From the NCBI GenBank assembly GCA_963663405.2, contig CAXXSM010000076.1, forward strand, positions 96,001 to 160,000: DNA of 64,000 nucleotides, in the 5' to 3' direction. The position numbers were made by a program, and so were the translations under genes. Of this stretch, positions 1 through 46,832 are shown piece by piece. The notes under the pieces are model-generated. The model worked only from the letters and a program-made list of their open reading frames with translations. It was not told the origin of the DNA and made no database searches. Position 1 is the first letter of the stretch. Each line of letters begins with the position of its first letter. Origin of the DNA: a bacterium. GTDB lineage: Bacteria; Hinthialibacterota; Hinthialibacteria; Hinthialibacterales; Hinthialibacteraceae.

Positions 1-411
1 GCCAGCCCGGAAGAATTTCTGCCGGGGGCCGTCTACTAAAGTCGGATCGAAATACCCATACCGCATGCCGGTCTGCCCATCTTGATCGATATACACCTGG
101 AAGGGATCGTCCACCGATTCCGGATTGGTCAAATAAGAGGTCGGTGTGCTCAGCGCGTTAAAATATCGTGGACTCGTGTGCCCTCCCCATAAGTTATAAG
201 GAGGATAACCGTTTTGATCCAAATGATACGATTCAAGCGCCGTCGCCAGCGTCCGGAAATCACTCTCCACCCGCGCCACTTTCGCCCGGACCTGCGCGTT
301 AAGAAAGTTCGGAACCGCGATCGCCGCTAAGATTCCGATAATGGCGACAACGATGAGAAGCTCGATCAATGTAAATCCCTCCCACCGGGATTCCTGTATC
401 ATACCGTCCAT
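1..411 (-). CDS. Prepilin-type N-terminal cleavage/methylation domain protein (pilin-like paralog 1), runs off the left edge
   Basis: Not in the ORF track. Manual translation of the reverse strand from ATG 411 (or 402) gives MDGMIQESRWEG|FTLIELLIVVAIIGILAAIAVPNFLNAQVRAKVARVESDF...ALSTPTSYL..DDPF, open to position 1. Confidence 0.93.
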   Translation of the reverse strand, partial: MDGMIQESRWEGFTLIELLIVVAIIGILAAIAVPNFLNAQVRAKVARVESDFRTLATALESYHLDQNGYPPYNLWGGHTSPRYFNALSTPTSYLTNPESVDDPFQVYIDQDGQTGMRYGYFDPTLVDGPRQKFFRAG

Positions 412-591
412 CAGATCCCCATCCTTTACTATCCGATGTCTATCAACGGCTTCATAGTACAGGAATGACGAGGGACACGCAATAATATTTTGTAAAAAAA
501 CAGAATATCGTTGGCTGTATAAATAAGGTTCATATAGGGAGCATTAAAATCATTTTGGGAAATTGCGCTTTATGTTTAGGATGGCTTAATC

Positions 592-677
592 GTCTGAACC
601 ATGATTCTAAGGATTATAGGATTACCATGATTAAAAATCATAAAAATCATGATAATCAAGTAAATCAAGGTTCAGAC
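592..677. repeat. Palindromic MITE/REP-like element with ~9-nt internal periodicity
   Basis: Terminal inverted repeats GTCTGAACCATGATT ... AATCAAGGTTCAGAC enclose GGATT/TGATT and AATCA units. A related right half lies at ~20484-20531. Confidence 0.65.
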
Positions 678-910
678 AATGAAGAATCCCGCTTTGTTGC
701 GCAGGGCTTCAATATTTCACACAAAAAGTGAATGGATTGATAAAACACGTACTAACTTGCCGGAAAACCCAGAAAAAAACTGGATAAAAGATAATTGTTC
801 AGTAAACTGAAATTATCCTATACAATAACAACAGGCTCACGGGCGAATAGATTATCAATGAAACACTTATAATAAATGGAAATCATTGAATAACTTGTTA
901 ATATCAGAAA

Positions 911-1306
911 ATGAGATCGGTGTTTGTATATTTAAAAAATGTGGACAAGGCTAAAGTCGTCGTTGCGCTTGACAAGATATGTGATCAGCGTGGCGCACTG
1001 CTCGATGGATGGATCTGTCTGACGAAGGGAACTCCTGTTCTGTATGTTGATTTCTACACTGATCTCGAAATTGAATTTGAGCCCGATGATTGGACCCGGT
1101 TGATCGACTCCCTCGGATGCAAACCCAGTGTCTCCGTTACTGCCAATGTCTCCGGTCGACATAATGGCAGGCCGGAGGTTATCGCCTTCCTGAAGGCTCT
1201 TCTTGATAAATTCGAAGGAGTCGTTCAAGATGATTCTGAATCCATCTGGACAATGCAAGAAGTCCTAAGTGGGGACATAAAAGAGGGGAGAGGATTCTTT
1301 CGATGA
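911..1306 (+). CDS. Hypothetical protein (131 aa)
   Basis: ATG ORF with protein-like composition. No family recognised. Confidence 0.7.
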   Translation: MRSVFVYLKNVDKAKVVVALDKICDQRGALLDGWICLTKGTPVLYVDFYTDLEIEFEPDDWTRLIDSLGCKPSVSVTANVSGRHNGRPEVIAFLKALLDKFEGVVQDDSESIWTMQEVLSGDIKEGRGFFR

Positions 1307-1391
1307 AAGAAAACTACCAAACAAAGACTGCTTTTTATCGTCGCCTTCATTTCGAAACAAGAGCCCAGTCGTTAACCTATGAGAAAAATAA

Positions 1392-2267
1392 ATGAGTTAC
1401 GATCTTTTCTTCACAGAACCGAAAATCACGCTTAAACAATTCTTAGACTACTTTAGCGATAGGAACCACTATAGAGTCGAGAATTCTCAAGCATGTTATG
1501 AAAATGAGGATACAGGGGTGTACTTCTCTTTTGAATACTCGGATGAACAAGAGGGGGATCCAGAAGCGCCGAATGGTAATGTATCCTTCAATCTGAATTT
1601 TTTCCGGCCTCACTACTTCGCGTTAGAAGCGGAGCCGGAAGTGCAAAGCGTTGTGAATCACTTTGGCTTCAAGATTTTTGATCCCCAGTTCAATGGCATG
1701 GATGAGGGGCCGTACTCAAGGGATGGATTCCTCACTGGATGGAACCACGGGAACGAATTTGGATATAGTGCGATGTTAAACTCTGAGAAGCCTCTAGAGA
1801 TTATTCATTCTCGGTCCGGAGATGAGTTAGAGTCCATCTGGAAGTGGAATTACGCAAGAGAGAAAAATCAGAATACTTTCGGTGAATCCGTGTTTGTCCC
1901 TAAAATCATGTTCTTACAGATCGACGGGAACATTATGTCTGTCGCCGTCTGGCCAGACGCAATACCGGCGCTTATTCCAAAAGTTGATGCGCTTTTAATT
2001 CCACGACAGGAACTCGCTCCCCGCAGTCTCTTCAAAAAGCGGGATGATATATGCGTTGCGCCATTTGAGAGAGCGCTTCCCTTGCTGGAGCCTTTCAGGG
2101 CAAACGGTTACTCGCTGCCTGTGTTTGCCTTCTCCTATACTACCATACCCGCGAATGTAACTTCCTTCGTGAAAGGCCTGAAGCCGCATACAGGAGATAT
2201 AAAAGGCGTAGCGATGGATCAGGTTCTCAATCAGGAACTGATTGAAAAAGCAAGGGAAAAATTATAG
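1392..2267 (+). CDS. Hypothetical protein (291 aa)
   Basis: Long ATG ORF beginning MSYDLFF, rich in aromatic and acidic residues. No function assignable. Confidence 0.8.
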   Translation: MSYDLFFTEPKITLKQFLDYFSDRNHYRVENSQACYENEDTGVYFSFEYSDEQEGDPEAPNGNVSFNLNFFRPHYFALEAEPEVQSVVNHFGFKIFDPQFNGMDEGPYSRDGFLTGWNHGNEFGYSAMLNSEKPLEIIHSRSGDELESIWKWNYAREKNQNTFGESVFVPKIMFLQIDGNIMSVAVWPDAIPALIPKVDALLIPRQELAPRSLFKKRDDICVAPFERALPLLEPFRANGYSLPVFAFSYTTIPANVTSFVKGLKPHTGDIKGVAMDQVLNQELIEKAREKL

Positions 2268-2310
2268 TTTCACATAGTTTCTTATAACGAATAAAATCCC
2301 CCACCAAATG

Positions 2311-2367
2311 AAAAAACCCCCACCAGACATCAATCCGTTCGCCGGATTGATGACCATGAAGGAGGTT
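2311..2367 (-). terminator. Probable intrinsic terminator after the HU gene
   Basis: Hairpin CATCAATCCG/CGGATTGATG with outer pairing and a T-run on the minus strand. Confidence 0.45.
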
Positions 2368-2442
2368 CATTAATACCCTACGTGAACATACGCTGAGAAG
2401 CGCGTTGACAACAAGCGGATCCGAACAGCAGGAAACGATTCG

Positions 2443-2823
2443 TTATGACGTTCCCAATATCGCATCCTTGCACGCTTTGGCGACCCGAAATTTGACGACC
2501 GTTTTCGCCGGGATCTTGATCTGTTCGCCGGTCGCGGGGTTGCGGCCTGTCCGGGCTTTGCGTTTAACGAGAACCAATTTGCCGAATCCAGGAAGAGTAA
2601 ATCCTTTTTTCGCCTCTTTGTACCCTACAGCCGCCAACTCATCCAGCATCGACTTCACTTGCACTTTCGTCAGCTCGCACTTCTCCGCCAATTGAGTGAT
2701 CAATTGGGTCTTGGTCATGGGTTTTTTTGTGGTGGCGGCGGCGGTAGTGGTGGTTTTTTTCGCCGCCGTTTTCTTGGCTGTGGTTTTCTTCGTTGCGGTT
2801 TTCTTTGCCGCGGCTTTCTTCAT
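2443..2823 (-). CDS. hup: HU family DNA-binding protein with Lys/Ala/Thr-rich N-terminal tail
   Basis: HU signature LPGFGKL..VKRKARTGRNPATGEQIKIPAK.VVKFR. AGGAGAGG SD upstream. Confidence 0.93.
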   Translation of the reverse strand: MKKAAAKKTATKKTTAKKTAAKKTTTTAAATTKKPMTKTQLITQLAEKCELTKVQVKSMLDELAAVGYKEAKKGFTLPGFGKLVLVKRKARTGRNPATGEQIKIPAKTVVKFRVAKACKDAILGTS

Positions 2824-2969
2824 GACGCCTCTCCTTCTAGGGGGTTAATATTAAATTATTTCGAATGTAATTTAACGATTTTTTGAATTCCGTCAAGCAA
2901 AAAAATTGTAAAAATGCTATTTTTCTTCGGTTTTTAAGGGATTTTTGGGGATCGGCGGCTAAAAAGGCC

Positions 2970-4337
2970 CTATTTTAGGGGATTTTCGCGTAAAGTTCGG
3001 TTCAGATTCGCTATTTCGCGCTTAAAATCTTGGTACTCTTCATACGTAAATCGGCGCGAACGCCAAGGGGTCAACGAATTATTCTGCAGGAGCGGATCCG
3101 CCGTTGGATCGAACTGAAAACCGGAATCCGCTTCGGTGTATAATGGCGTGCCCGGCACGGGAGAATACATCGCTAATTTGATCTCACTGCCCGCTTTCGC
3201 TACGGTGTGGGACGCTTCCCGCACCGATGTGAGACTCTGCCATTCAAGACCGAGTAAAAGATACGTTCCCACTTCCCGCGCGGTGAATCCAGCCTGACGC
3301 AGATGACTCATCGCCTGTATATATTCTTCTGTACGCACTTTCCCCCCCGTGGAATGCTGCCACTCTTCCCGCGTCAATTCCAGACCAAGCCGGATCGTTG
3401 TGAATCCCGCCCGCTTCATAAGCTGGGCGGTGGGCAAGTCGATCTGCCGCACATGAAGCGCGTTCGGAGTGTGAAAACGCAGTTTTACATCCCGGCGCAG
3501 CAATTCTTCAAGCAAGGGAAGAATCCGGCGTTCTTTATCGATTAGAAGCGCGTCATCAAAAAAAGCCACATCGCTCCCGCCGTACTGTTTATCAATCCGT
3601 TCAATCGAATCCGCTGCCCTGCGCCAATCGTACTGGATGAATCGCGGCCATAACGAATGAGTCGCGCAGTACGTGCATCGGCAGGGACAGCCCACGGAGG
3701 TCAACACAGGATAGCAGGTTTCCCCCATTAGCCAATCATAGGCCGGTTCAATCCAATCCGTCCGATCCCCCAGTGAATCATTCTCACGCCATCCTCCCAG
3801 CGTAAGAATCTCGCGTGTAATCCCCGGCCAATCCTCCCCCACCACAACAGCGTCCGCCCCGGAATGCGCCTCCGCGTGCTCTCGGCATAACGCCGCGTAA
3901 ACGCCCCCCAAAACAACGATCGTCTTCGGAAACAACCGTCGCAGCATCCGGATCGCTTCAAACGCGCCGATATACCAATACGTCATCATACAGGGAACAA
4001 CTGCGATATCCGGTGAAGGAAATTCCTGCAAACGGTTCTCAACACGATCGAATGGAATCCCATACCGTTTGTATTTCCGTGGAATCTGTTTTAGCACATC
4101 TGGCAGGGGAATCTCTTCCCGGTAGTAATGACCGCAGCCATACGGATTGAGCCGGTGACGTGGAATGCGGGTAACGCCTTCCAAATCAGGCGACCGCCGG
4201 TCAAGACAATCATAAAAGTCCGTTTCCACTCCACATTGACGTAACAACGAAGCGAGTCGCAGCAAATTCAAAGGCCGCGTCCAATGATCGAACGCGGCGA
4301 AATCCGTAATCCATGGATTAAACAGAAGAACCCGCAT
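2970..4337 (-). CDS. B12-binding domain radical SAM protein
   Basis: CxxxCxxC motif (GCPCRCTYC), N-terminal cobalamin-binding-like region (VLGGVYA), FDDALL and PVPGTPLY motifs. Confidence 0.88.
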   Translation of the reverse strand: MRVLLFNPWITDFAAFDHWTRPLNLLRLASLLRQCGVETDFYDCLDRRSPDLEGVTRIPRHRLNPYGCGHYYREEIPLPDVLKQIPRKYKRYGIPFDRVENRLQEFPSPDIAVVPCMMTYWYIGAFEAIRMLRRLFPKTIVVLGGVYAALCREHAEAHSGADAVVVGEDWPGITREILTLGGWRENDSLGDRTDWIEPAYDWLMGETCYPVLTSVGCPCRCTYCATHSLWPRFIQYDWRRAADSIERIDKQYGGSDVAFFDDALLIDKERRILPLLEELLRRDVKLRFHTPNALHVRQIDLPTAQLMKRAGFTTIRLGLELTREEWQHSTGGKVRTEEYIQAMSHLRQAGFTAREVGTYLLLGLEWQSLTSVREASHTVAKAGSEIKLAMYSPVPGTPLYTEADSGFQFDPTADPLLQNNSLTPWRSRRFTYEEYQDFKREIANLNRTLRENPLK

Positions 4338-4474
4338 GATAAAAAAACAAAAACCTTAATCAAACCAATATAAGATATAGTATACTGCCATACAACTTTG
4401 ATCATAACGAGAAGACCAAATGCGTAGACGCTAAAGATAATGTTATTGCGCCAGTGGTTTGACGAGCATACCAT

Positions 4475-6313: not shown

Positions 6314-6344
6314 TGGAGCGAGGAATCCTAGAACAATAATCGAT

Positions 6345-6385
6345 GGGCGCCCAGGGCAAGGCGTTTTTCTATCTTGGCCTAAATC
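6345..6385 (+). repeat. REP-like family A copy
   Basis: GGGCGCCCAGGGCAAGGCGTTTTTCTATCTTGGCCTAAATC, which matches the copies at 9213, 9866, 13400 and 13482. Confidence 0.75.
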
Positions 6386-6416
6386 AACAAAGTCTATTGA
6401 TAATCCTAATATAATA

Positions 6417-6698
6417 TTATTTCCGAACGGCAATCCTCAAAGTCAATCCTATAGCATTTAGTATTTCTTGCGCGTTATATAAATAGGGATTGTTAGTACT
6501 TGTGAAGATATTGCGGCTTTTAGAATCGGCTTGCGAAAACGTGGATATTTCACCTCGCGCTTGGACGACATTGCGCAATGCGGAAAGGAATACTTCCAAA
6601 TCCCCATCTTCTAAAGCCGCGTTCAGATACCCCACCGCCTCTTCGGGATCTTTCAGGGATTCTATCAGATACTTATCATAATCGATCGTTTTAGTCAT
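6417..6698 (-). CDS. Addiction-module antidote (HigA-like antitoxin), HTH region degenerate
   Basis: YLIESLKDPEEAVGYLNAALEDGD..FL.ALRNV..ARG..NP..IL.AIGL.L. Start overlaps the toxin stop (ATGACTAA). Confidence 0.75.
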   Translation of the reverse strand: MTKTIDYDKYLIESLKDPEEAVGYLNAALEDGDLEVFLSALRNVVQARGEISTFSQADSKSRNIFTSTNNPYLYNAQEILNAIGLTLRIAVRK

Positions 6699-12769: not shown

Positions 12770-13336
12770 ATGCGGTATTTCCAAAAAGGTTTCACACTGA
12801 TTGAATTGCTCATTGTCGTCGCCATCATTGGAATTCTCGCGGCGATCGCCGTGCCGAATTTTCTGAACGCCCAGATGCGGGCCAAAATCACCCGCGTAAA
12901 AGCCGATTTCCGGGCGATCGACACATCGTTCCAGAGTTATATGCTCGATAATAACCACTATCCGCCCGATGTCGGTGGGCCTTGCGAGGATGTGCTCGCG
13001 TATTATCGGCTTACGACACCGATCGCGTATATTTCAAATCTCAGCGTTTTCAAGGATTATTTTACAAACGAAAATCCGGAAGGCGCGATCGGCGCGGCTT
13101 GCGAGTTTAACTATTATGATTATGGAATGGTTCCCTACATCACCGAATCTGGCGTGGGTTACGTTGTCATCAGTTTTGGCCCGGACCGGGATCTGGATAT
13201 GGGCTGGAACACAAATTCAATGGACGCGTTGAAACGAAATGACGCCCCCAATTTATCGTTCTTATACGATTCATCGAACGGCCTTATTTCATCCGGCGAC
13301 CTGATCTTAACCGGTCTCGGCATCCACAATAAATAA
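12770..13336 (+). CDS. Pilin-like protein (paralog 2)
   Basis: KG|FTLIELLIVVAIIGILAAIAVPNFLNAQMRAK class III signal, GAGGTG SD, LTTPIAY, FGPD and YDSSNGLISSGD. Confidence 0.95.
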   Translation: MRYFQKGFTLIELLIVVAIIGILAAIAVPNFLNAQMRAKITRVKADFRAIDTSFQSYMLDNNHYPPDVGGPCEDVLAYYRLTTPIAYISNLSVFKDYFTNENPEGAIGAACEFNYYDYGMVPYITESGVGYVVISFGPDRDLDMGWNTNSMDALKRNDAPNLSFLYDSSNGLISSGDLILTGLGIHNK

Positions 13337-19022: not shown

Positions 19023-19752
19023 CTGTTCAAATACTTGATACTATTGGTTTTCCTTGTCGCGAATCAATTCTTCTCATTGACAACCGGGCCGGCTTCGTTT
19101 ATTGGATATAATATCTTATATAATATAATCAAAATTGAAATCAATTTCAAATCGTATGAATCCACAGATAATTATTTTTTTTCTATTTTTTAAAATTGCT
19201 GTTCCTGTCTCATGATCAATTACCGAATGGTTGGGCTTTCCAGATTTAGGCCAAAAAAATACCGTCTATTGCTTTTCACAATACGAGTTATATGAGTAAA
19301 TTGTTTGTTTTTGCGGTATTATATTATTATTAGAAATACATTATCTTTATTTCTATCTTCATAAATGCGCTTTAAATTCCAATGCCTTGTTTCTCACGAG
19401 GCTCAATCCCCAACTCTCTTCGATAATTTTCTTTCTAATTCATTATAATGGGGAAAAAAGAAAACGCTACATTGTATCTGCAGGTTATTTGCTCCCCCTA
19501 TTATATCCACTGGAATTGAAGAGTATCGTGAATCCTGATTTTCGATAAAATATATTTTATAATATGAATCTAATTAATTTGAAATCCTGGACACCGTCTT
19601 TTCTTTCAAACCGCAATACGAATTTGAAGAAAGGAAACCTAAGGATACAAATCGATGTATTATGTGGAACGCTGGAGGTTGGTTTTTCATTTAACACTTA
19701 CAAGAAAAAACAGAATCGCCTGAATAACAAGGCGTCACGAGGGAGAAGAACA

Positions 19753-20409
19753 ATGGGGAAAAAAAGGAATGTATTGCATGGATTCACGTTGATTGAACTG
19801 CTCATCGTCGTCGCCATTATTGGAGTGCTCGCGGCGATCGCCGTTCCGAATTTTCTGAATGCGCAGATCCGCGCGAAAGTGTCGCGCTGCTACGCCGATA
19901 CAAAAGCGCTCGGAACGACCATTGAAATCCTGCGGATGGATAAAGGCGTGATGCTGGTCGATTGGTGGGACGACGACCGGGAATGGGGTCATGAGCGTCT
20001 CCGCACGATCTTCAACATGGTCGGCGCTGGAGACTTCGAAGCGCGGGGCCGTAACGCCGTGCTTGCGCCGTTGACGAGTCCTGTCAACTACATGTCATCT
20101 ATTCCAAAAGATCCGTTTCAAAGCCCGGCGATCGATGGCGGCTGCTACTATTATTACCTCGACAACGATCCCGAAGATCCAACCGACGATCACGATTTCC
20201 CCGCCTACAAAGAAGGCACAGCCGAAGTGTATGGCAACAAACCGTTGAAATCGGGAGAATGGGCCATCGGCGGTATCGGCCCTGATGGGGAATGGTACGG
20301 GGCGACATGGACCGACGCCACCTCCAACGCCCGTGGCAGCAAATACGATCCCAGCAACGGCCTCTCCAGCCGCGGCGATATCATGCTCACCTCCCGTGGG
20401 ATCGATTAA
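19753..20409 (+). CDS. Pilin-like protein (paralog 3)
   Basis: Start reassigned to MGKKRNVLHG|FTLIELL (GAGGGAG SD). LTSPVNY..IPKDPF, IGPD and YDPSNGLSSRGD. Confidence 0.93.
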   Translation: MGKKRNVLHGFTLIELLIVVAIIGVLAAIAVPNFLNAQIRAKVSRCYADTKALGTTIEILRMDKGVMLVDWWDDDREWGHERLRTIFNMVGAGDFEARGRNAVLAPLTSPVNYMSSIPKDPFQSPAIDGGCYYYYLDNDPEDPTDDHDFPAYKEGTAEVYGNKPLKSGEWAIGGIGPDGEWYGATWTDATSNARGSKYDPSNGLSSRGDIMLTSRGID

Positions 20410-23551: not shown

Positions 23552-24838
23552 ATGCCACAGTCCGAACATTTAGAACGCTTAAAAAGAGATATCGACTCCT
23601 GGAATCAATGGAGAGAGGAGAACCTGGGTGTTCTCCCCGATCTCAGTTGGGCGGATCTGAGTAAGATGGACTTGAGTGAAGCGAACTTGATTGTGGCGGA
23701 CCTGAGTCATGCGGATTTACGGGAAGTGAATCTGAGTCATGGAGATCTCCGGCAGGCGAATTTAACGGGAACGGACCTGAGCGGGGCGGATCTCTTCCGG
23801 GCGAACATCAGCGATACGGAAATGATTGAAGCGGACCTGAGCCGGGCGGACCTGCGGGAGGCCAATTTGAGCGGGGCGGATCTGCGTTGGGCCAATCTGC
23901 GGGGAGCGGAGCTGAGCGGCGCCAATTTTGATCGTGTGAAATTCCGAAAAGTCGATCTGAGTGGAGCGTATCTTTTTCAGGCGAATTTTGTCGGCGCCGA
24001 TCTCCGGGACGCGGATCTGAATGACGTTAATTTATTGAAGGCGAATCTTAGCGGGGCGGATCTAAGTGGCGCGAACCTGTGCGGGGCGAATCTGAGTGAG
24101 GCGAATCTGAGCGGCGCGCAGCTGGATGGGGCGGATCTGATGTTTACCAATTTTACGAGAACGACGCTGACAAAGGCGAATTTTAAGCGGGCGAAATTGT
24201 TCCGTACCATTTTCGCCGACGTGAATCTCAGCGAAGCCATTCACCTGGAAAGCGTCGAACATTGTTTTCCTTCCACCGTCGGTGTCGATACATTTTTCCA
24301 GTCTAAGGGGAAAATCCCTGACGCGTTTCTCCGGGGAGCGGGTGTGCCGGAAAATCTGATTGTTTATAAAAACCCATTAACTCATGACGCGAATCATTAT
24401 TATTCCTGTTATATCAGCCATAGTGATAAGGATAAGGATTTCAGCGAAATGCTGTTACTGGCGCTGCGGAAAGAAGGGATTCGCGCCTGGCGGTTCCCGG
24501 AAGAGATCAAGATGACGGAATCGATCCGGTGCGAAATCGGCCGCAGCATCGACCGCCGGGATATTTTGCTTTTTATTTGTTCCGAAGAATCTCTAACAAG
24601 CGCCTGGGCGATGGAAGAAATCGAACACGCGTTGATGAGAGAAGAGACGGAAAACATACAAATCCTCTTCCCGGTCACTATCGATCCATTTCTCGAATAT
24701 TGGCAAGCGCCTTTACAGAAAGACCTTCTTAACCGAATCATCGTAAATTTCAGTGGTTGGTCTCAAAACTCACAGATTTTATATCAGCGGATTCCTCGAT
24801 TGATCTCTGCATTGAAAAAGAAGAAGAATTCTTTCTAA
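23552..24838 (+). CDS. Pentapeptide-repeat + TIR-domain protein
   Basis: WNQWRE start, long A(D/N)LSG repeats, then YSCYISHSDKD...SEESLTSAWAMEEIEHAL (TIR_2-like). Confidence 0.88.
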   Translation: MPQSEHLERLKRDIDSWNQWREENLGVLPDLSWADLSKMDLSEANLIVADLSHADLREVNLSHGDLRQANLTGTDLSGADLFRANISDTEMIEADLSRADLREANLSGADLRWANLRGAELSGANFDRVKFRKVDLSGAYLFQANFVGADLRDADLNDVNLLKANLSGADLSGANLCGANLSEANLSGAQLDGADLMFTNFTRTTLTKANFKRAKLFRTIFADVNLSEAIHLESVEHCFPSTVGVDTFFQSKGKIPDAFLRGAGVPENLIVYKNPLTHDANHYYSCYISHSDKDKDFSEMLLLALRKEGIRAWRFPEEIKMTESIRCEIGRSIDRRDILLFICSEESLTSAWAMEEIEHALMREETENIQILFPVTIDPFLEYWQAPLQKDLLNRIIVNFSGWSQNSQILYQRIPRLISALKKKKNSF

Positions 24839-27835: not shown

Positions 27836-28486
27836 ATGAATATGCGAGTTAGGAATCACTGGTTGGGTTTTACGTTGATTGAATTGCTGATTGTTGTCGC
27901 GATTATCGGGATTTTGGCGGCGATCGCCGTACCCAATTTTCTCAATGCGCAGATCCGCGCGAAGATTTCCCGTACGAAAAGCGATGTGCGGATGTTGGAT
28001 GACCAAGCCGTTATCCGAAATATGGATTGTGGATTATGGTTGATTGATGGCAACGATACTGGACAAGCTGATCATTGCGAGTTTGAAGCCGGTTATAATT
28101 TCTGGGGCAAGACACCGGCGGAAGCGCAGGTCGATACCCAAGGGGCGCTTGGGGATAATTTCTTTAACGGACAGATTTACCAACAATTAACAACCCCCGT
28201 CAATTACATCAATTCGATCCCGGTGGATGTGTTCACCAAGGGATTGTTTTACGGTTATGAGGATCGCGGGTGTTCTAATGCGCCCATTGGCACGCATTAT
28301 CTCTTCTTTGCCTGCGGGCCGGATGGGGATACATTTGATTGGTACATTGGCCGTCATGCGACTCCATACGTTTCATCGAACGGGCTGACGTCCAATGGAG
28401 ATGTCTGGCGGTCCCGTAAACTGCGTATCCGGCCGGACGAAGGCGACCTGTATCAACAAGAGATATTCCAAGATTACTGGGAGTGA
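27836..28486 (+). CDS. Pilin-like protein (paralog 4)
   Basis: LG|FTLIELLIVVAIIGILAAIAVPNFLNAQIRAK, LTTPVNY, CGPD and YVSSNGLTSNGD. Confidence 0.93.
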   Translation: MNMRVRNHWLGFTLIELLIVVAIIGILAAIAVPNFLNAQIRAKISRTKSDVRMLDDQAVIRNMDCGLWLIDGNDTGQADHCEFEAGYNFWGKTPAEAQVDTQGALGDNFFNGQIYQQLTTPVNYINSIPVDVFTKGLFYGYEDRGCSNAPIGTHYLFFACGPDGDTFDWYIGRHATPYVSSNGLTSNGDVWRSRKLRIRPDEGDLYQQEIFQDYWE

Positions 28487-28931: not shown

Positions 28932-29585
28932 GTGAATCAGCGTTTTCGGTATTACCGATGCGGTTTTACGTTGATTGAATTGCTGATCGTTGTAGCGATT
29001 ATTGGGATTCTGGCGGGGATCGCCGTGCCCAATTTTCTCAATGCGCAAATCCGCGCGAAAGTGACTCGTACGAAATGCGATATGCGCATGTTGGACGATC
29101 AAGCCGTTATCCGCCATATAGATACCGGCTTATGGTTGATTGATGGGAATGACGCAGGACAAGCCGAACATTGCGAGTTTGAAGAGGGATTTCATGACTG
29201 GGGCTTGGTACCCGATGAATTATATATTGATACACAGGGGGCGGCGCTCGGGAATGAATTCTTCAATGGGCAGATTTATCAGCGATTAACTACCCCCGTC
29301 AACTACATTAATTCAATCCCGGCGGATGTGTTCACCAGGGGAATGTTTTATGGGTATTTTGACCATGGGTGTTCGAATGCGCCTAAAGGCGCGTATTATC
29401 TTTTCTTCGCTTGTGGGCCGGATGGGGATCTATTTGATTGGTTCATTAACCGTCCTGCGATTCCGTATGTTTCCTCGAATGGGCTGACGTCCAATGGAGA
29501 TGTCTGGCGGTCCCGTAAACTGCGTATTTATTCAGACGAAGGCGCCTTGCACAACGAAGCGCTATTCCAGGATTACTGGGAGTGA
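28932..29585 (+). CDS. Pilin-like protein (paralog 5), tandem duplicate of paralog 4
   Basis: GTG start. CG|FTLIELL..., highly similar to 27836-28486. Confidence 0.93.
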   Translation: MNQRFRYYRCGFTLIELLIVVAIIGILAGIAVPNFLNAQIRAKVTRTKCDMRMLDDQAVIRHIDTGLWLIDGNDAGQAEHCEFEEGFHDWGLVPDELYIDTQGAALGNEFFNGQIYQRLTTPVNYINSIPADVFTRGMFYGYFDHGCSNAPKGAYYLFFACGPDGDLFDWFINRPAIPYVSSNGLTSNGDVWRSRKLRIYSDEGALHNEALFQDYWE

Positions 29586-31215: not shown

Positions 31216-31221
31216 GAGGAC

Positions 31222-35834: not shown

Positions 35835-38800
35835 TCACCAATACCGTTTTCGTAATGTTACTTTTTTATAGTCTTTGTTTATATCAAAGAGTTCTTGGAG
35901 TGGTTTGAGATAGGGGCTTTCGGCGGGGGATTCATTGTTGATGGTTTCAATTGTTATGGTGTTTACCGGCGTGAAGGCCCGTTCGAGCATATCTTTGAAA
36001 AGTGAGTAATATTCAGGCAAATGAGAATCGTTGGGAGTTACTTTGATATCTAGATCTTTGCCATTGCGGCGGGAGATCATGACAAGTTGTTTACCGTGGT
36101 AGACAAGATGATTTGCGGGACGCCGTTCGGGTAGATTGTATTCGAGGCCCTCTACTGATACGCCGCAGAGGGATGCGGGATCGTTGGCGTTGATCCAAAA
36201 AATCGATTCCTCCGAAAGCCCGTTTTGCAGCGCGCGCAGGGCGGTGGATGAGATGAACTGCAAACCGGGAATTCCTTCAAAGAAACATCCCGCCATGATT
36301 TCTCCTGAAAGTTCCATCAGCCGCAGCGCTTTGAATAATGCGCCCCAGCGCAGCGCGGGCCGTTCGCGTATTAGCAATGTCCGGAAAAGAATCCCATATC
36401 GATCCAATAATAGCCGTACGCGGTCTTTCAGGCGTTCAAGTTCTTCTACGGCGTCCTGCGCGGGAGTGGGTGGATCGAGAACATACCAGTTGCCTGCGAA
36501 GGGCCGTGACATCTTCCAGCGGCTGAACGCTGCGCGGCGCCCGCCTCCATTGATTTGAGATAAATCGCTGGCCTGAAATTGATTCTCCACTCCTTTACGT
36601 AATGATCCAAACGAATCGTTGGTTACTTTTCCCTGCCAGACCAAATCCCATAACGCGTTGGTCAGGCTCGCGGAATCCAGGTTTGTGTGATTCAGCAATT
36701 GTGAGAAATCATACTTGCCTTTAGGATCGGGAAAGATCGTTTCTAAAGAGATTGAATTATTCGTTTCTTGTGTATTGATTTTTCCAGCAGGATCATTTTT
36801 GTTCCCACCGTTCTCTTCGATAAATAAATCCAATTGATCGTGGAAGCCGATGGTGACTTTCTCTTTTCCGCAGCCAATCCAGGCGAGATTGGTTTCCTGC
36901 ATGAGCGTGTCCATCGATGATGTGGAATAGGCGTTTATCCGGGCGGGGAGGAATTCACGTTCCCAAAGTTCTGGACTTGCTGGATAGGCGAAGAGTTTTT
37001 CGAGAGCGTATTGCAGGTGTTCCAGCGTATCTCCTTTTCGGGCGATTCCTTGATGAGACGCCAGGAAGAGTGGCAGCGCTTCGGGGGGGGAGTGGATCGA
37101 AATGGGGGATCGCTTCTTTCCTGGTGAGACGGAGTAGGATTTCCAAATTCTCGCTATCACATATTTCCTCTTCTGTACAACCGGCGCTGATCGAGCCGAT
37201 GACAACCCGTTCTGTTTCTACAAGTGTATCCAGCGCGGTGTTTAGACTGGATTCGGAGATCCCTAATGTTTCGAGAATGTAAGTTTTTGTAACTGGTCCG
37301 TAATATTGCAGCCATTGCCCCAGCCAATCGGCGAAGGGATCGCTGTCTTCTGAAACTGTTTCGTAGGGAGGTAGAGAACTTACAATTTCATTTATTGGCA
37401 GTTCTCTTTGATTGATTAGTGAATTGATTGATATCTGCGAACGGTCTATCTGTAGAGATGTAATGAACCGCGGAAGTTTTTCTAATGCGGTAATAGAAGC
37501 CGGCGTGTTTGCGGACCATCTGATCCACGCTATTTTCGTGTCTAATGTTTGTATTGTCTCACTGGGTTGGATTGAATGGTCTTTTTCTATCGCTTGAAGA
37601 AGGGCGATCCATTCGGCGCGTGGTATTAACAGGCGTTCTTTGATCCAATCCAATAGATCCACTGTCGTTCGTGGAGAGTAGCCGGGAAAAGTACGCTTTG
37701 CTTTCTGTTCAAAACGCTCGATCAATTCCCGCGCAATCTCCGGCCGTAAATCTTGTGAAAAAACCGCCTGTTTGATTAGATCATCGCGTAAATTCGAAAC
37801 GGCGCCGGCGGGAGAGTCTTCTTTATACATGAGCTGGTTGGTCTGCCGCCATAGAAGCCCTTCGGTGAAGGGGGAGGGAACATGGGTTGCGACTTCCGTG
37901 ATGGTGATTTCGCCTATGTGGATTTCATCCAATAGTTTTTTCAGTGTATTCAGGTCAAACTCATCCCGCAGACACCCACGCCATGTTTCCATGAGAATGG
38001 GGAAATCTTCATATTGAGTAATTGTGTCCAGAAGTTTTTTTTGAACGCATCCTATTCAGCCAAAGGGGCGTCCGCCGGTCGAAGGAATCGCGGGGTAAGA
38101 GCAGCGCCCGCGCGGCGTTTTCGCGAAACCGGGCTCCAAAAAAACCGCTTCGTTCCAATTTCTGTCGCAGCAACGATTCTATATCTTCCGCGCGTAGAGA
38201 AAGGAGGAATTCTTTAACAGGGAAATCATAAGGCGGAATGATCGCGATGGCGTCGTTGTGAGGCAGAATTTTTAGCTCGCTTCGATTTGTGTTTTCCCAT
38301 AAGGCGGAGAGCGCCAGCGCAAAAGGATAATTGACTTTCCCGCCCCATAATGTATGCAGAATCACCTGTGAACAGTTCTTATCACCGCCGGGAAACTGGG
38401 TGTATTCCACCAGCAAATTATGGCGATGTGGCAGCCCAGTTCCAGATGCTTTTTTTTGTTTTCGTAAAAAGAGAATCAGCGATCTTGCCGCTGTCTCTTC
38501 CATGCAATAGTCATGAATTAGTGTTTTTTCGAATCCAGAATCTTGAAGATTACTATCCGCTGTTTCGAGAAAGAGACTGATCTTTTCCGCAAGGTGGAAA
38601 TCGCGGTTGATCTCTTCCGCGATCCAAAACGGCGCTCCTTCTGTGGTTCCATCACTCAGCGCCGCGATGACGTCGTTGTGGGTGATCTGGTGGATTTTCC
38701 AATTTTGCGCGCCGAATGTGAACACATCACCTGGTTTATGTTCCCAGACAAATTCTTCGTCCAGTTCTCCAACCTTGGTTCCTGTGTCCCGGCGCCGCAG

Positions 38801-40329
38801 TATGAAATAGCCCCGGTCAGGGATCGTTCCACCGGATTGATAGACAAGGCGAAGCGTTTTTTCTTTGGCGCGAATGGTGTTGTCGATACGGTCGATGGAG
38901 ACGAGTGGTTGTAATGCGCGGTTCCGGCTTCCGGCGTAATGGCCGCTCAACATTTTAAGGACAAGATCGTATTCCACGCGGCTCAATTCGTGGTAGGGAT
39001 AACTGGTTTGGAGAAAATGATAGAGCGCGTCGATGTCCCATATTTCAACGCCGGTCATTGCGGCGATCACCTGAGCGAGCACATCCAGCGGGGATTGAAT
39101 CGTATGTCCGCTTTCGATTTCCCGATCGAGAACACAGCGTCCGATTGCGGCGGCTTCCAATAGATCGCGTCCATGAGTGGGGAAGAAGAGACCTTTGCTG
39201 ACCTCTCCAACGCGATGCCCGGCGCGGCCGATTCGCTGCAGGGCCGCTGATATTGACATGGGGGATTGGATCAAAATCACTTCATCCAATGCGCCGACAT
39301 CGATCCCCAATTCCAACGATCCCGTAGCGATGATCGCGGATAAATTTCCATTTTTCAAACGCTCTTCAACAATGCGCCGGGTTTCGAGGGAGAGGGAACC
39401 ATGATGCGGGTAAGCGATCAGTTGTTCTTCATCCTGATTGATGAGTAGAGCGATCTGTTCGCAGAGACAGCGGTTGTTGGCGAATAGAAGCGTAGAGCGA
39501 TTTTCGCGATGATCTCTTTTAATTGTTTGACCAGTGGCGGCCAGAAGTCCGTTTCTTCTAGATTCTCTCTTGGTTTGACGGGGAAATGGACGCGGATTTC
39601 GTAATCCTTGGATTGTTCGGAGCGGATAATTCGAACATCCCGCTTTTTATATTTCACATGTCCACCGTGTTCTTCAATCTGATACCCGCCAATGAAATCG
39701 GCTACTTCTTCAAGAGGTTTGACGGTAGCGGATAGGGCGATGCGTTGAAATTCTCCCGCCAGAAGAACGAGCCGGTCAACGGCGGTGATGAGATGGGTTC
39801 CGCGTTTTGTACGGGCGACCGCGTGGATCTCATCGAGGATGACGCATTCGATCTGTGTCAAGATCCTGCGTCCCCGCATGGAACTAATCAACAGGTTTAA
39901 ACTTTCCGGTGTGGTGATCAATATTTCCGGGGGATGACGCAGCATTCTCTCGCGTTCGCTGCGGGTCGTGTCACCGCTGCGGGTGAGAACGTTGATTTCT
40001 GGAAACGGAACGCCTGCGCGCTGGAAGTATTCGCGGATTTGCGTTAGGGGTTCGAGAAGGTTTCGTAAAATATCATTGTTGAGGGCTTTGAGCGGGGATA
40101 CGTATAGAATTCGGGTATGTCCGCGCGCCCATTGTTGTGTAACCAGACGATCGATCGCCCAGAGAAATGCCGTGAGTGTTTTGCCGCTGCCCGTCGGCGC
40201 GGTGATGAGCAGGTGTTCTCCACGCGCGATCGGCGGCCATGAGCGTTTTTGCACGTCGGTTGGAACGCCAATTTGTTCCGTAAACCAGTTTTGAATGATG
40301 GGATGAAAGAGTGATAGCGGATTCCCCAT
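35835..40329 (-). CDS. lhr: Lhr-family ATP-dependent DEAD/H helicase, split by three homopolymer frameshifts (likely sequencing errors)
   Basis: APTGSGKT, YVSPLKALNND, TTPESL, DEIH, LSAT, HHGSLS, SLELGIDVG, QRIGRAGH, ANDPA. Indels at ~39502 (A-run), ~38038 (8 T) and ~37086 (8 G). Confidence 0.9.
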
Positions 40330-40450
40330 GTTTGTACCTAGGCGCCGTTCGGTTGACTTTCCGTATGATGTATCGTATGAATGGATTTGTAAACCGTTTT
40401 ATAACCATGAAGACGGGCGTAATCCAACGATAGAAAGGATGACTCTTATC

Positions 40451-41848: not shown

Positions 41849-41859
41849 TAGTAGTTCTA

Positions 41860-42681: not shown

Positions 42682-42900
42682 TAGTGTGGAAACCGCTCCT
42701 CTCAACCTTTTCATACATACTAAATAGTGACATAGAAAGAATAGCAATATCTTCAAGAAAACGGACGGGGTAAGGTTTTGTAAAGAATCACAGTTTGATA
42801 AAAACCATAATCTTGATAAAACGTTGATGTTAGCGGGCTGTAAGAAATGATGTGATTTTGTGTATGAAATAGATCGATTGATATGCGCGCTTAATGATCG

Positions 42901-44394
42901 TTATTGGTTTTTTTGAACGACTTGTATATTCGTTAATCGAAGCATGTTCTTACGCTCACCAGTTTCGGGATCAAGGCCGTTTCGGAGGCCGAATCCATAG
43001 AGCAGTTCACCGGGAGCCACTTCTGCTATCCATGTGTATCCGGAGTAGCGTTCAGGATGAACGCTGGTGTGATCCGTCCAGGTTTTGCCTTGATCCGCGC
43101 TGAACATGATCTTCGCGCCCGGCCGTCCGTAGCTACAAGCCAGCACTCCATTCGACATGACCACAAGGCATGGATAGACGCCGTCGATCCCGGTCCGGTG
43201 AGGACCATCCCATGTGAGGCCCTGGTCTTTGCTGTAAAAGATACATAGTGGATTATCTTTCCATTTTTGCGAATCACTGCCGGAACGGATGGCGGCGATG
43301 AGGGTACCGTTTTCAAGTTTCTTCAACGATCCCTCGTTCCATCCTTCGCTGCCCCAGTTGGGTTCATAGGCGATGGTGGAATAGTATTTCCATGTCTGCC
43401 CGTTGTCCGTCGAGCGAGTGAGGAAACTGCGGCGGTAATTCTGACCGTGCACAGGAGATTCTTTTGTGTCGGTGTCAAACCATCCACACATCAACGCCAG
43501 GAGAGAACCGTCGTCGATCTCTACGATTGAGCGCATGAATAATGGGCCAGGATGATAGGCGTGGCCGTGGGAACCGACAGCGTGGGGTACAGTAAACGGG
43601 CATTCAAACGGATCTTTGATGGTTTGACCGTTGTCATCGCTGGTGTACCGTTGACCGATGAATGCGCCTTTTTCTCCTTCTTTTGGCAATGTGCGGTACG
43701 CGAGACCGAGCAGCGAACTATCAGTAAATTCGTGTGATATCATGGCGGATTGAGAATGTCCTTTTCCCCACAACAGCGAGTCGTTCGTATAAGGTTTCCA
43801 TGTGTATCCTTTATCATCCGAATATTTTCCATCGCTGATAACACGTCCACTTGATGTGACAAACATGGTGTTGAAATGCGTTCCCTCGGCGAAGTAACGA
43901 TCCGGCTCGATCGAAATCGCTAGATGATCTTTTGGATCTTGCACTTTGATGGCGAAGTCGCGGTAATCTAGCGCGGGATGATCAGGGCCTTTGTGGATGG
44001 CGCTGGGTTCGATTGTAAAATTATGGATTCCACTTGGCCAATCCTTTGTGCTGATTTGTATGCGTAGTTTCCCCGCTTCTGGATCTAGATCGTTTTGTCC
44101 ATTGTCTTCAATCATTCCATTGGGGCCGTAATAGGCTTGCTGGTTCTCTTCATGGAACTGAAATCCAGGAAGGGTTTCTTCTTTTAGAATTGTGTAGGGA
44201 TGATGAATTGTCCAATTTTTAATATCAGAAAAGGATGTGTGAATGGAGATGGTTATGGGCTGTCCTTGTTTGACGGATAGCGGTTCGACAGAAAAATGGG
44301 TATAGATTCCTGTATGAGGAGTTTGCGCTTGAGCGGCGCCGGTTAGGATTAAAATGGATAGAGTGATAAATTTGCATTGTAGGGGAAAACGCAT
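42901..44394 (-). CDS. Secreted BNR/Asp-box (sialidase-like) protein
   Basis: Signal peptide and Asp-boxes SDDKGYTW, SDDNGQT, STDNGQTW, SKDQGLTW, SADQGKTW. Confidence 0.82.
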   Translation of the reverse strand: MRFPLQCKFITLSILILTGAAQAQTPHTGIYTHFSVEPLSVKQGQPITISIHTSFSDIKNWTIHHPYTILKEETLPGFQFHEENQQAYYGPNGMIEDNGQNDLDPEAGKLRIQISTKDWPSGIHNFTIEPSAIHKGPDHPALDYRDFAIKVQDPKDHLAISIEPDRYFAEGTHFNTMFVTSSGRVISDGKYSDDKGYTWKPYTNDSLLWGKGHSQSAMISHEFTDSSLLGLAYRTLPKEGEKGAFIGQRYTSDDNGQTIKDPFECPFTVPHAVGSHGHAYHPGPLFMRSIVEIDDGSLLALMCGWFDTDTKESPVHGQNYRRSFLTRSTDNGQTWKYYSTIAYEPNWGSEGWNEGSLKKLENGTLIAAIRSGSDSQKWKDNPLCIFYSKDQGLTWDGPHRTGIDGVYPCLVVMSNGVLACSYGRPGAKIMFSADQGKTWTDHTSVHPERYSGYTWIAEVAPGELLYGFGLRNGLDPETGERKNMLRLTNIQVVQKNQ

Positions 44395-44418
44395 ATTTGG
44401 TCTCCTATATGTTATTAT

Positions 44419-45297
44419 TCATTGATAGCATTGCGCATTCTTGTTGACGCTGACGGAAGAAAAACTTTCGTGAAAGAAATCCACGACTAAAGGAAGCGAT
44501 TCTTCCACAATACTGAATGTATGCGAACCTTCAAAGACCTTGTATTGATGGGGGATATCCAATTCAGTGAGTTTTTCATGAAAATGTTCGTTCATGGTGA
44601 AGTCAAAGGCTTGATCCGCTGTTGTCAGAAACAGACACATGGATTTTAAGTTGGCGGCGAGTGGAAGGGGATTGAACGATTCTTGTTGTTCTTGCGTAGT
44701 CCCAAAAATGGAAGGAACGCTGTGGTTTTGTTCCGTGGGGAGAGAAAAATTGGGGAAATCGAGCAATCCCAAAATCGCAGCGGCGGCTATGAACCTGTTT
44801 GCGTGTCGTTCCGCGTATCGAATCGCTCCAAAGCCGCCCATTGACCAACCTGTGATCCCCCGCTGTTTAGATAACTTGCTGATATTCAGATGTTTTTCGG
44901 AGACTTGGATTACTTCGTCAATGAATGTTTCGAATTGGCTTTGCGCTGAGACGGGACTATCGATCCACCACCCGTTTTCCCCATAGGGCATTATCGTTAC
45001 GAAACGGGCTGCCAATAAAGTCTCGCGTGTGGTTTCAAAATCGGTGAGTGAAAAATGGTTGCGTCCCGCGCCGTGAAGAAGGTACACCACCGGCCAGGGA
45101 GCGCCGGTATCGGAGTACTCTTTTGGAACGACCGCGGTGAATGATGTTAATTTGTTTAACGCGGGGCTTTGGATCCGATAATGGAAGATTTGATCATGGA
45201 TTGCCCGCATGTTGGTCACTTCGGGCTCATCGCAAACGGCTATCGTAGAGAAAATCATCCCCATCCAGATTCCCATGCTCCGATGGATTGCTCTCAT
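44419..45297 (-). CDS. Secreted alpha/beta-hydrolase esterase (CE1/tributyrin esterase-like)
   Basis: PVVYLLHG, nucleophile elbow GWSMGG, catalytic His in GSHTF. Confidence 0.88.
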   Translation of the reverse strand: MRAIHRSMGIWMGMIFSTIAVCDEPEVTNMRAIHDQIFHYRIQSPALNKLTSFTAVVPKEYSDTGAPWPVVYLLHGAGRNHFSLTDFETTRETLLAARFVTIMPYGENGWWIDSPVSAQSQFETFIDEVIQVSEKHLNISKLSKQRGITGWSMGGFGAIRYAERHANRFIAAAAILGLLDFPNFSLPTEQNHSVPSIFGTTQEQQESFNPLPLAANLKSMCLFLTTADQAFDFTMNEHFHEKLTELDIPHQYKVFEGSHTFSIVEESLPLVVDFFHESFSSVSVNKNAQCYQ

Positions 45298-45425
45298 GAC
45301 TTTTTCTCCATAAAATATGGTTAGAAACATGATTATTAGTATTCCTATACTAGAGTAATTAATGATTGAAGTAAAGATATATAGGAATATAATTTTTTTA
45401 ATTTTTGGGGTATTGTTAAATCTAT

Positions 45426-45439
45426 ATAATACGTATACT
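45426..45439. promoter_or_regulatory. LacI-type operator overlapping the -10 box (TATAAT 45425-45430) of the aldolase gene
   Basis: ATAATACGTATACT, identical to the site at 47065-47078. Confidence 0.7.
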
Positions 45440-45468
45440 ATTCGCTAAACTTCATATAGAGAGGCGTT

Positions 45469-46263
45469 ATGAAATCATTGCCGAATAATCGTGTATTGGA
45501 AACACTTCGAAGCGGGAAGATTGTTTTTTCCTGCAGCTTGACTCCAGTCTGTGATCCTAAAATCGCTGAATTGATTGGGCTGGTTGGATTCGATTGTCTT
45601 TGGATCGATATGGAACATCAGGATTTCGATTATCAAAGCGTATTTAACGCCTGCCTGGCTTGCCGGGCGACAGGGATGGAGCCGATGGTGCGTATCCGGC
45701 GGGAGGGGCGTCATTCCTGTTTCCGGGGATTCGAAGTAGGGGGGACGGGGATCATGGTTCCGCATTGTATGGGGGAGGTGGACGCCAAAACGATTGTGAA
45801 AGAGGCGCGGTTTTCTCCTATGGGTTTGCGTGGCATGGATGGTGTTGAGGTGAGCGCCCGCTATGGGATGACGCCGATGGAGGAGTATATCGAATGGGCC
45901 AACCGGGAAACGTTCATCGTTGTTCAGATCGAGGACCGGGAAGCGGTGGATGAGATTGACTCGATCGCCGCCGTGGAGGGAATCGATATTCTTTTTATCG
46001 GTCCGGGAGATCTGAGTCAGAGTTATGGACGGCCTGGGCAGTGGGATTGTCCAGAGATCCAACGCGCGTTTGAGCAGGTCGCCCAAGCGGCAAAGGAACA
46101 TGGAAAATATTGGGGCGCGCCGGGAGGCAATCCGGAACGAGCGCGGACATTGATTGAAATGGGTGCCCGTTTTCTGAACACCACATCATTGAGCGGTATT
46201 ATGCGGAAGGGATTTCAAGACGCGTTTGAATCTTTTGACGCTGTGCGGCGGGAATTTGGTTAA
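45469..46263 (+). CDS. HpcH/HpaI aldolase family protein
   Basis: GFDCLWIDMEH, RFSPMGLRG, VQIE and FIGPGDLS. Confidence 0.92.
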   Translation: MKSLPNNRVLETLRSGKIVFSCSLTPVCDPKIAELIGLVGFDCLWIDMEHQDFDYQSVFNACLACRATGMEPMVRIRREGRHSCFRGFEVGGTGIMVPHCMGEVDAKTIVKEARFSPMGLRGMDGVEVSARYGMTPMEEYIEWANRETFIVVQIEDREAVDEIDSIAAVEGIDILFIGPGDLSQSYGRPGQWDCPEIQRAFEQVAQAAKEHGKYWGAPGGNPERARTLIEMGARFLNTTSLSGIMRKGFQDAFESFDAVRREFG

Positions 46264-46289
46264 TCACGCATGATGAATACTATCCATTG

Positions 46290-46832
46290 TTAAAATCCCA
46301 GTTCGTAAATATCCCCGATGCTTACCAAACCATTCGAGCTGTCATATTCCATATGAATACCAAGCGCTCCTTCCGCTGTGCTGGGTTCGTATAATCCATT
46401 CGGGGCGGCTCCTAATAAGATATACGTTCCTTTGGCGTCGCGTACGCGTGGCATATGATCAAATTCTCCTCCATCCCGTTTTCCATCCGCTACATCAATC
46501 GGCCAATAGGGGTAGACATCTCCATCCCGATCCGTGAGTCCTTTGGGGCGGAACGGATCGTAGGGGATTGAGGAGAGGTAGGGAGTGGGTGTGGTGAGGC
46601 GGATCAGGCGGGTTAAGCGTCCTGAAATGCCTGGTGAGTAGGACGGGTATTCGTTGTTATCGAGCCGATATTGCGCCAATCCCATTTTGATGGCGCGCAT
46701 GTCGGATACGCTCCGGGCGACTTTAGCGCGGATTTGCGCGTTCAGAAAATTGGGGACGGCGATCGCCGCCAGAATCCCAATAATAGCCACGACAATCAGA
46801 AGTTCGATCAATGTGAATCCGTTTGCTTTCAT
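46290..46832 (-). CDS. Pilin-like protein (paralog 6)
   Basis: Start reassigned to MKANG|FTLIELL (AGGTG SD). LTTPTPYLSSIPYDPF and YDSSNGLVSIGD. Confidence 0.93.
   Translation of the reverse strand: MKANGFTLIELLIVVAIIGILAAIAVPNFLNAQIRAKVARSVSDMRAIKMGLAQYRLDNNEYPSYSPGISGRLTRLIRLTTPTPYLSSIPYDPFRPKGLTDRDGDVYPYWPIDVADGKRDGGEFDHMPRVRDAKGTYILLGAAPNGLYEPSTAEGALGIHMEYDSSNGLVSIGDIYELGF

Follow-up and report, generated by a model that had tools for sequence, protein, structure and literature searches.

Six dispersed pilin-like genes in Hinthialibacterota DNA are members of a phylum-wide family derived from the pseudopilin GspG

Why should one stretch of bacterial DNA hold six genes for pilin-like proteins that are dispersed among unrelated genes, with no assembly genes beside them? 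The stretch (below, the window) comprises 64,000 nucleotides, G000:C76:96001-160000, where G000 is the source assembly of a member of the Hinthialibacterota (8.44 Mb, 170 contigs, 82% complete) and C76 is the contig. An earlier note on this DNA had described six paralogs with a near-constant N-terminal scaffold. This observation was confirmed: the six genes share a signal, a helix and internal motifs. They are members of a multigene family that is found throughout the phylum and is derived from GspG, the major pseudopilin of the type II secretion system (T2SS).

The shared sequence FTLIELLIVVAIIG was converted into a degenerate back-translation, which was used to search the window DNA with 100 shuffled sequences as a control. 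This pattern gave exactly six matches, all with 0 mismatches, at 335-375 (-), 12791 (+), 19783 (+), 27869 (+), 28965 (+) and 46777-46817 (-), and no match in the 100 shuffles. The six genes are listed here, with a slash for the putative cleavage site; copies 4, 5 and 6 are called P4, P5 and P6 in the following.

Copy 1 (P0001): 1..411, minus strand; leader MDGMIQESRWEG/FTL...; the C-terminal third lies beyond the window edge.
Copy 2 (P0002): 12770..13336, plus strand; 188 amino acids; leader MRYFQKG/FTL; smallest head of the six.
Copy 3 (P0003): 19753..20409, plus strand; likely start is the Met at 19753, within the open reading frame (ORF) 19564-20409.
Copy 4 (P0004): 27836..28486, plus strand; large insertion, two Cys that are invariant in its subfamily, and a C-terminal tail.
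Copy 5 (P0005): 28932..29585, plus strand; tandem neighbour of copy 4; start probably GTG.
Copy 6 (P0006): 46290..46832, minus strand; leader MKANG/FTL; alone among the six in exceeding the Pfam T2SSG cut-off.

The starts at 19753, 27836, 28932 and 46832 agree with the nearest start codons ahead of the motif. When the six translations were aligned, they showed an invariant G/FTLIELLIVVAIIG.LA.IAVPNFLNAQ.RAK followed by an invariant L..P..Y and D.F, and the motifs (G/A)P(D/N) and Y..SNGL.S.GD were present in all five complete copies; the coordinates and motifs reported earlier were thus right. The full P0001 gene spans G000:C76:95791-96543, and its protein ends with YEPSNGIQSRGDLHRFGP and contains the C-terminal SNGIQSRGD. 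P4 and P5 are 75% identical, and the remaining heads are 20-35% identical to each other. The relative G012 has a single counterpart of this pair, with 80% identity to P4 and 72% to P5. Judging from these identities, P5 is a recent tandem duplicate of P4.

In all six proteins, only the N-terminal methylation motif passes the Pfam and NCBIfam cut-offs, namely PF07963 (N_methyl; 24.8-38.7 bits, cut-off 21.2) and TIGR02532 (28.8-38.9 bits, cut-off 16.3). A short basic leader, a small residue at position -1 and a canonical assembly helix with F1, E5, G14 and P22 are common to these proteins. A sequence search of the PDB matched residues 1-70 only, with type IVa pilin helices as the best hits, and the N-terminal 60 residues are nearest to type IVa major pilins (78-62 bits in the PDB; 52-62 bits with NCBIfam PilA_Myxo, NF041775, which is below its cut-off of 400). 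With TIGR01710, the GspG equivalog model, the six score 41.9-66.8 bits and all fail the cut-off of 88.85, so that no outright match to a characterised major pseudopilin was obtained; the GspGs encoded in operons of the same genome pass with 124 and 135.7 bits. PF08334 (T2SSG) is exceeded by P6 alone (28.7 bits, cut-off 21). None of the six matches DUF1559 (PF07596) at E <= 1. A six-frame search of the genome with PF07596 gave three weak matches, none of them in a pilin-type family member and one in a 636-amino-acid thioredoxin-like protein that is described below. No scanned Pfam or NCBIfam model covers the head at the level of the family, and the only matches are weak ones to T2SSG.

The relationship to GspG becomes evident from profile and structure comparisons. 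A head-only profile of 60 paralogs was aligned by hhalign with the genome's own operonic GspG at 96% probability (E 4.9e-9), with the motifs in register: YP, LTTP..Y with P..(F/Y), DPF with DPW, Y.Y, and S.GPD with S.G.D. AlphaFold models of P0002 (predicted local distance difference test, pLDDT, 89.7) and of the P4 subfamily (pLDDT 87.7) were compared with known structures. P0002 resembles the GspG/PulG structures 3gn9 (Z 8.8, root mean square deviation 2.6 over 100 residues), 3g20 (8.7), 4lw9 (8.4) and 1t92 (8.0), and the top two hits of the P4-subfamily model among 48,161 PDB chains are EpsG (4lw9, Z 7.8) and PulG (Z 6.5). By the standards that the tool itself gives, such Z values are of medium strength, yet nearly all top-ranked entries are pilins or pseudopilins. 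Foldseek alone gave no match at E <= 0.001. The earlier description of the proteins as loosely GspG-like is borne out by these results. As hhalign aligns them to operonic GspG motifs, the blocks LTTP..Y, D.F, Y.Y and GPD represent the inherited GspG core; they are genuinely conserved, as had been noted, but they are not specific to the family.

The hhalign match stops at GPD, and the longer C-terminal stretch with Y..SNG..S.GD does not align to the ...DG..DDI.NW end of GspG. GspG bears a C-terminal calcium-binding loop. The SNG..S.GD motif sits at the place equivalent to this loop, before the last strand, which is beyond the point where the profile alignment ends. Over 124 paralogs, four segments of the head are variable (YP to LTTP, D.F to Y.Y, Y.Y to GPD, and GPD to SNG), with column conservation of 0.2 or less and mean insertions of up to 8-9 residues. 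Cysteines are absent from 54 of these 124 heads, and another 26 have a single one. The head is a GspG core that bears four variable insertions and is extended at the C-terminal end, and its novelty lies in these parts.

To the question of how far the family extends, the answer is that the six copies are a small part of it. Gene calling yielded 7,045 ORFs in the genome, which were searched in two rounds with hidden Markov models (cut-off E <= 1e-3; copies above 100 bits are called strong). A first profile built from the six window copies gave 302 candidates, 150 of which were scored matches; the family model then identified 161 genes, 128 of them strong and about 33 divergent. The idea of a large repertoire, which a count of only a few copies would have contradicted, is therefore upheld. 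A few copies are truncated or broken. The strong copies lie on 64 of the 170 contigs and are distributed like random genes, apart from an excess of tandem pairs: 11 pairs are less than 2 kb apart versus 3.1 expected, a number that was reached in 0 of 500 random draws. The six copies per 47 kb in the window are the maximum in the genome, and random gene sets reach the same density in 15 of 500 draws. The genes are scattered, and about half of them stand alone: 67 of 123 copies have no neighbour on the same strand within 100 nucleotides. A scan for promoters and terminators revealed no excess over shuffled sequences (30 versus 27.5 and 23 versus 19.5).

The head profile matches 31 of 31 relatives. 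Over the phylum as a whole, 35 of 35 genomes from one class and six families contain the head domain; the number per genome is 32 to more than 113 among the matches listed. This extends the claim of a large repertoire to the relatives. In a set of 1.84 billion representative proteins, the profile matched 6,664 clusters at E <= 1e-3 and 4,556 at 1e-10; some of the matching clusters carry 2-5 heads in tandem. The sources name the closest orthologs as proteins of Candidatus Hinthialibacter antarcticus or of Candidatus Omnitrophota metagenome-assembled genomes. Look-alikes in the ESM-Atlas are labelled Sumerlaeota, Omnitrophota and Planctomycetota, and these labels are the sole basis for a spread outside the phylum. 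P0002 as a query in a collection of genome contigs found no related locus.

The history of the paralogs can be read from the contrast between helix and head. The motif is present in 126 of the 128 strong copies. In these 126, helix residues 1-28 have 93% protein identity, and the first, second and third codon positions are 86%, 97% and 43% identical in the DNA. Copies with exactly the same 28-mer use 87 different DNA versions of it. Because of this low third-position identity and the many DNA versions, the helix must be kept in every copy by purifying selection and not by gene conversion. F1 is retained in 125 copies, E5 in 126, and G14 and P22 in 122 each; the constraint exceeds what membrane anchoring alone would need. 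Position -1 is occupied by G (61), A (45) or S (20) and by nothing else. Within orthogroups G and A interchange between orthologs, which agrees with selection for a cleavage site where a small residue suffices. Four of five related genomes contain one clear ortholog of P0002 each (74, 74, 64 and 62% identity), the next full-length match being at 50% or less, and many relatives at 59-78% identity occur in metagenomes. The one-to-one orthologs at 62-74% show that the heads are old and individually conserved rather than fast-evolving. The loops that had been called hypervariable are thus variable between paralogs, but what they reflect is old divergence and not rapid change.

Some proteins carry the head but lack the pilin helix. 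In one, a BlaR1/M56 protein encoded after a BlaI-type repressor gene (G000:C132:229526-231864), the head is the C-terminal domain; two tandem AhpC/thioredoxin-like proteins of 701 and 636 amino acids (G000:C22:37744-42174) and a 568-amino-acid protein (G000:C92:5400-7106) end with it as well. M56 genes lie directly upstream of three more head-domain genes, two of which are strong family members. In total, 4 of 19 M56 matches have a fused or adjacent head gene, against an estimated chance value of about 0.8. A metagenome protein of 978 amino acids, which its source names as a BlaR1-type transducer, carries two heads. The C-terminal domain of BlaR1 is its extracytoplasmic sensor. By analogy, the position of the head in these proteins suggests that it is a ligand-binding module.

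If the six proteins are filament subunits, the machine that assembles them must be encoded elsewhere, as the earlier note had proposed from the lack of PilB, PilC and secretin genes nearby. In genome-wide profile searches, T2SSE, T2SSF, Secretin and Peptidase_A24 had no match on contig C76. On other contigs, the genome encodes seven T2SSE proteins, two prepilin peptidases (Peptidase_A24), about eight secretins and T2SSF proteins, so both a peptidase and assembly ATPases are available. There are three T2SS-like operons, on C29, C118 and C133, each with its own GspG (those of C29 and C118 pass TIGR01710), and a Tad-like cluster on C109. Two ATPases belong to the PilT family (468 and 417 bits, cut-off 319). 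Retraction ATPases of this family are a feature of type IVa pili rather than of T2SS. With the model for BasE-type ATPases, the five ATPases scanned reached 36-51 bits, far below the cut-off of 1000. A motif scan revealed no other major-pilin-like protein outside the operons. A small one-strand operon (G000:C118:178774-183903) encodes an extracytoplasmic function (ECF) sigma factor, a zf-HC2 anti-sigma protein, a divergent family member in the G position, a PilC-like platform protein and two pilin-like proteins, and no ATPase.

Two further observations concern secretion-type genes. In the T2SS operon of C118 (G000:C118:110000-126000), the T2SSF platform gene is in three pieces and the secretin is spread over three ORFs, which points to decay or to frameshift errors. 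The window itself contains one secretion-type domain only, a Secretin_N short domain in a 386-amino-acid protein that has no secretin domain; it is encoded at 55266-57602 (-) together with an ECF sigma factor and a 176-amino-acid ORF.

The neighbours of the family genes were analysed as a further source of information. A total of 229 neighbours were compared all against all by BLAST and searched with Pfam in two batches (119 at E 1e-5 and 110 at E 1e-10). By neither method was an obligate partner gene found among them, and the largest BLAST cluster comprises nine genes, presumably the nine GFO/IDH/MocA oxidoreductases that Pfam identified. In addition to these, there are five FG-GAP proteins, three sulfatases, three PQQ-propeller proteins, several glycoside hydrolases and esterases, three ECF sigma factors, one FecR-type and one zf-HC2 anti-sigma protein, a single T2SSF protein, and many proteins without any family. 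Housekeeping genes are also represented (AlaRS, ribosomal L19, GyrB, PNPase, a LysRS-type synthetase and guanylate kinase). N-termini resembling export signals occur in 29% of the neighbours versus 21.5% genome-wide (odds ratio 1.5, p 0.007, by a crude test). The statement that each copy lies beside catabolic or secreted-protein genes is therefore a weak one: a mild enrichment of export signals exists, but there is no recurrent partner, and many neighbours are housekeeping genes. Synteny is equally sparse. None of the genes next to P0002 in the window adjoins any of its four orthologs, and gene order is likewise not retained around the P4/P5 ortholog in G012, where the beta-helix gene that follows P5 is missing. 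P6 has an ortholog in G012 (82%) within a syntenic block, and synteny around P6 was seen in the closest genome only.

To account for these findings, we propose that GspG-derived subunits with a frozen helix feed a shared type IV filament machinery and that their diversified heads bind macromolecules, a reading to which we give an even chance. In this scheme, the PilD-like peptidase encoded at G000:C139:15008-15829 would cleave the precursors, and the cleaved subunits would wait in the inner membrane until they enter the shared machinery as alternative or mixed units. With identical helices, any paralog could be packed into one common fibre core, and the diverse heads would give the fibre, or a short periplasmic pseudopilus, varied binding surfaces for macromolecules such as polysaccharides. 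The resulting role could be capture, uptake or sensing. Cleavage, entry into the filament machinery and ligand binding are steps that we infer; the interchangeability of subunits in one fibre and the binding of ligands by the heads are supported, but not proven, by the frozen helix and by the BlaR1-type head fusions. On the whole, the earlier interpretation of a repertoire of interchangeable subunits with variable binding heads is partly supported. Several observations speak against our proposal. About half of the copies carry A or S at -1, and such sites are cleaved poorly by classical PilD enzymes. No family member lies within any of the three full T2SS operons, the neighbours do not hint at a function, and for the most part gene order around the copies is not conserved. 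A candidate for a dedicated motor also had to be rejected. This T2SSE ATPase of 905 amino acids (G000:C132:67942-70659), with an N-terminal hydrophobic (transmembrane) segment, TPR repeats and a T2SSE domain, is encoded 1 kb from two family copies. Three genomes of the same taxonomic family encode full-length orthologs at 42-43% identity, one further genome from the order encodes a weaker one (28%), and the candidate was dropped because there is no family gene upstream of the orthologs in these four relatives.

It is possible, though less probable in our view, that the proteins do not polymerise at all but are anchored binding or sensor proteins, for which the helix would serve only in export, cleavage, anchoring or a loose array similar to the "bindosome". 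With the same reserve, the heads could then be periplasmic receptors that pass ligands to transporters or to signalling proteins of the BlaR1 or ECF type. Such a role fits the helix-less heads at the extracytoplasmic end of the BlaR1/M56 protein and in the thioredoxin-like proteins, the M56 genes directly upstream of three further head genes, and the ECF sigma or anti-sigma genes that flank several copies. The choice of G, A or S at -1 also recalls archaeal class III substrates such as the sugar-binding proteins of Sulfolobus, whose processing accepts small residues other than Gly at this position. However, anchoring leaves unexplained why 28 residues are 93% identical when synonymous sites are saturated, and why E5, G14 and P22 are retained. 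The heads, with about 150 residues and the GspG fold, are not of the two-lobed solute-binding type, ABC transporters are rare among the 229 neighbours, and the BasE model was missed by a wide margin. A link to secretion appears more improbable: the paralogs would be alternative pseudopilus subunits of the three T2SS machines and would tune the surface of the piston to classes of secreted enzymes. GspG ancestry, the three operons, the mild export-signal enrichment among the neighbours and a genome rich in glycoside hydrolases, sulfatases and esterases, some of them adjoining copies, would agree with this. Nevertheless, the helix of the family is unlike that of each operonic GspG, the four P0002 orthologs and the P5 beta-helix gene in G012 show no conserved pairing of enzyme and pilin, and many neighbours are housekeeping genes; the two PilT-family ATPases, too, point to type IVa pili.

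Finally, the genes could be a reserve of alternative or silent pilin genes from which antigens or phage receptors are varied, comparable to the pilS cassettes of Neisseria. The many copies with a constant N-terminus and variable heads, and the excess of tandem pairs, are what one would look for in such a system. Yet the strong copies are mostly full-length, with 126 of 128 having their own leader and cleavage motif, they are dispersed over many contigs, and individual paralogs persist as one-to-one orthologs across genera and families. The synonymous sites of the shared N-terminus are saturated, and therefore no gene conversion is ongoing. A silent-cassette system is thus unlikely, and we give it a very slim chance indeed.

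How does the family relate to systems that have been described? With GspG, PulG and EpsG it shares the class III signal with F1 and E5, the fold (Z 8.8-7.8), the motifs YP, P..Y, DP(F/W), Y.Y and S.G.D in register, and, in most heads, the lack of the type IV pilin disulfide (54 of 124 have no Cys). It differs from them in that it falls below the TIGR01710 cut-off, its genes lie outside gsp operons, its head is about 40 residues longer with the four variable insertions, and it has more than 120 copies per genome versus one GspG per machine. The type IVa major pilins (Geobacter PilA-N, Myxococcus PilA, Thermus PilA4) resemble it in the N-terminal 60 residues with G14 and P22, and PilT-family ATPases are a further point of likeness. 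This likeness is confined to the helix; the head is GspG-like and has no conserved disulfide loop. According to the accessible part of one report, the sugar-binding proteins of Sulfolobus carry class III signal peptides (PMC3047682), so that here, too, a pilin-type signal is placed on a set of binding proteins and not on one fibre subunit. However, that system is archaeal, its cargo consists of full-size ABC (ATP-binding cassette) solute-binding proteins, and it needs BasEF, for which no BasE equivalog was found here.

The nearest analogy is DUF1559 (SBP_bac_10) of the Planctomycetes, which the earlier note had aptly named as an analogous expansion. In the accessible parts of the respective papers, 68 paralogs, two of them essential, are given for Planctopirus limnophila (PMC10632474) and 74 for Rhodopirellula baltica (PMC2754498); from a third such source, Planctomycetes cells bear dextran-binding fibres of unknown composition (PMC5394234). 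Both are very large prepilin-type paralog families of unknown function in polysaccharide-degrading bacteria. Our family nonetheless has no PF07596 match, a shorter head and other C-terminal motifs, and it is a separate, GspG-derived family from a different phylum. No NCBIfam model named for the H-X9-DG prepilin-associated family was among the matches of the six at E <= 1. Our literature searches found no paper that describes the family; the Hinthialibacterota paper, in its accessible part, mentions Tad pili and flagella (PMC9324843), and its supplementary tables may list the genes.

About 2% of the called genes (128-161 of 7,045 ORFs) belong to this one family, and the load is comparable in every genome of the phylum. 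It is a second, independent instance of the question that DUF1559 raises, namely why some bacteria that degrade polymers maintain pilin-like paralogs in dozens to hundreds. A more specific and rather doubtful version of our proposal is a combinatorial set of heads for a PilT-retracted type IV fibre, in which more than 100 binding modules on one helix would fish diverse polymers into the periplasm. If true, polymers would be taken up by pili instead of by a system of the SusC/D type, with the same module reused as a BlaR1-type sensor that switches on the matching catabolic genes, and it could also explain the DUF1559 expansion and the dextran-binding fibres of the Planctomycetes (PMC5394234, as far as accessible). 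Irrespective of this, a frozen helix beside free-running heads is a natural experiment on what type IV filament subunits must retain. Since the heads are small and well predicted and the orthogroups are clear, binding assays, cleavage tests of G, A and S sites, and metaproteomics are practical.

Some genes near the family copies deserve mention in their own right. Beside P6, the window encodes a secreted protein of 503 amino acids (47099-48610, +) that consists of two copies of one domain. Pfam assigns it to no family, and the genome contains no paralog of it; G012 has a counterpart with 73% identity next to the P6 ortholog and a LacI regulator. An Lhr-type helicase (DEAD, Helicase_C, WH_Lhr, DEAD_assoc and WH4_Lhr) extends over four consecutive or overlapping ORFs (35835-40329, -), so its gene is either broken or mis-assembled. 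Pentapeptide repeats and a TIR domain are combined in one protein at 23552-24838 (+), and the neighbour of another family copy (L001:1-2937) has TIR, NB-ARC and TPR domains; these TIR-containing proteins may be of the defence type. At 57829-60456 (-), a protein of 875 amino acids combines a lamin-tail domain with a CotH kinase domain.

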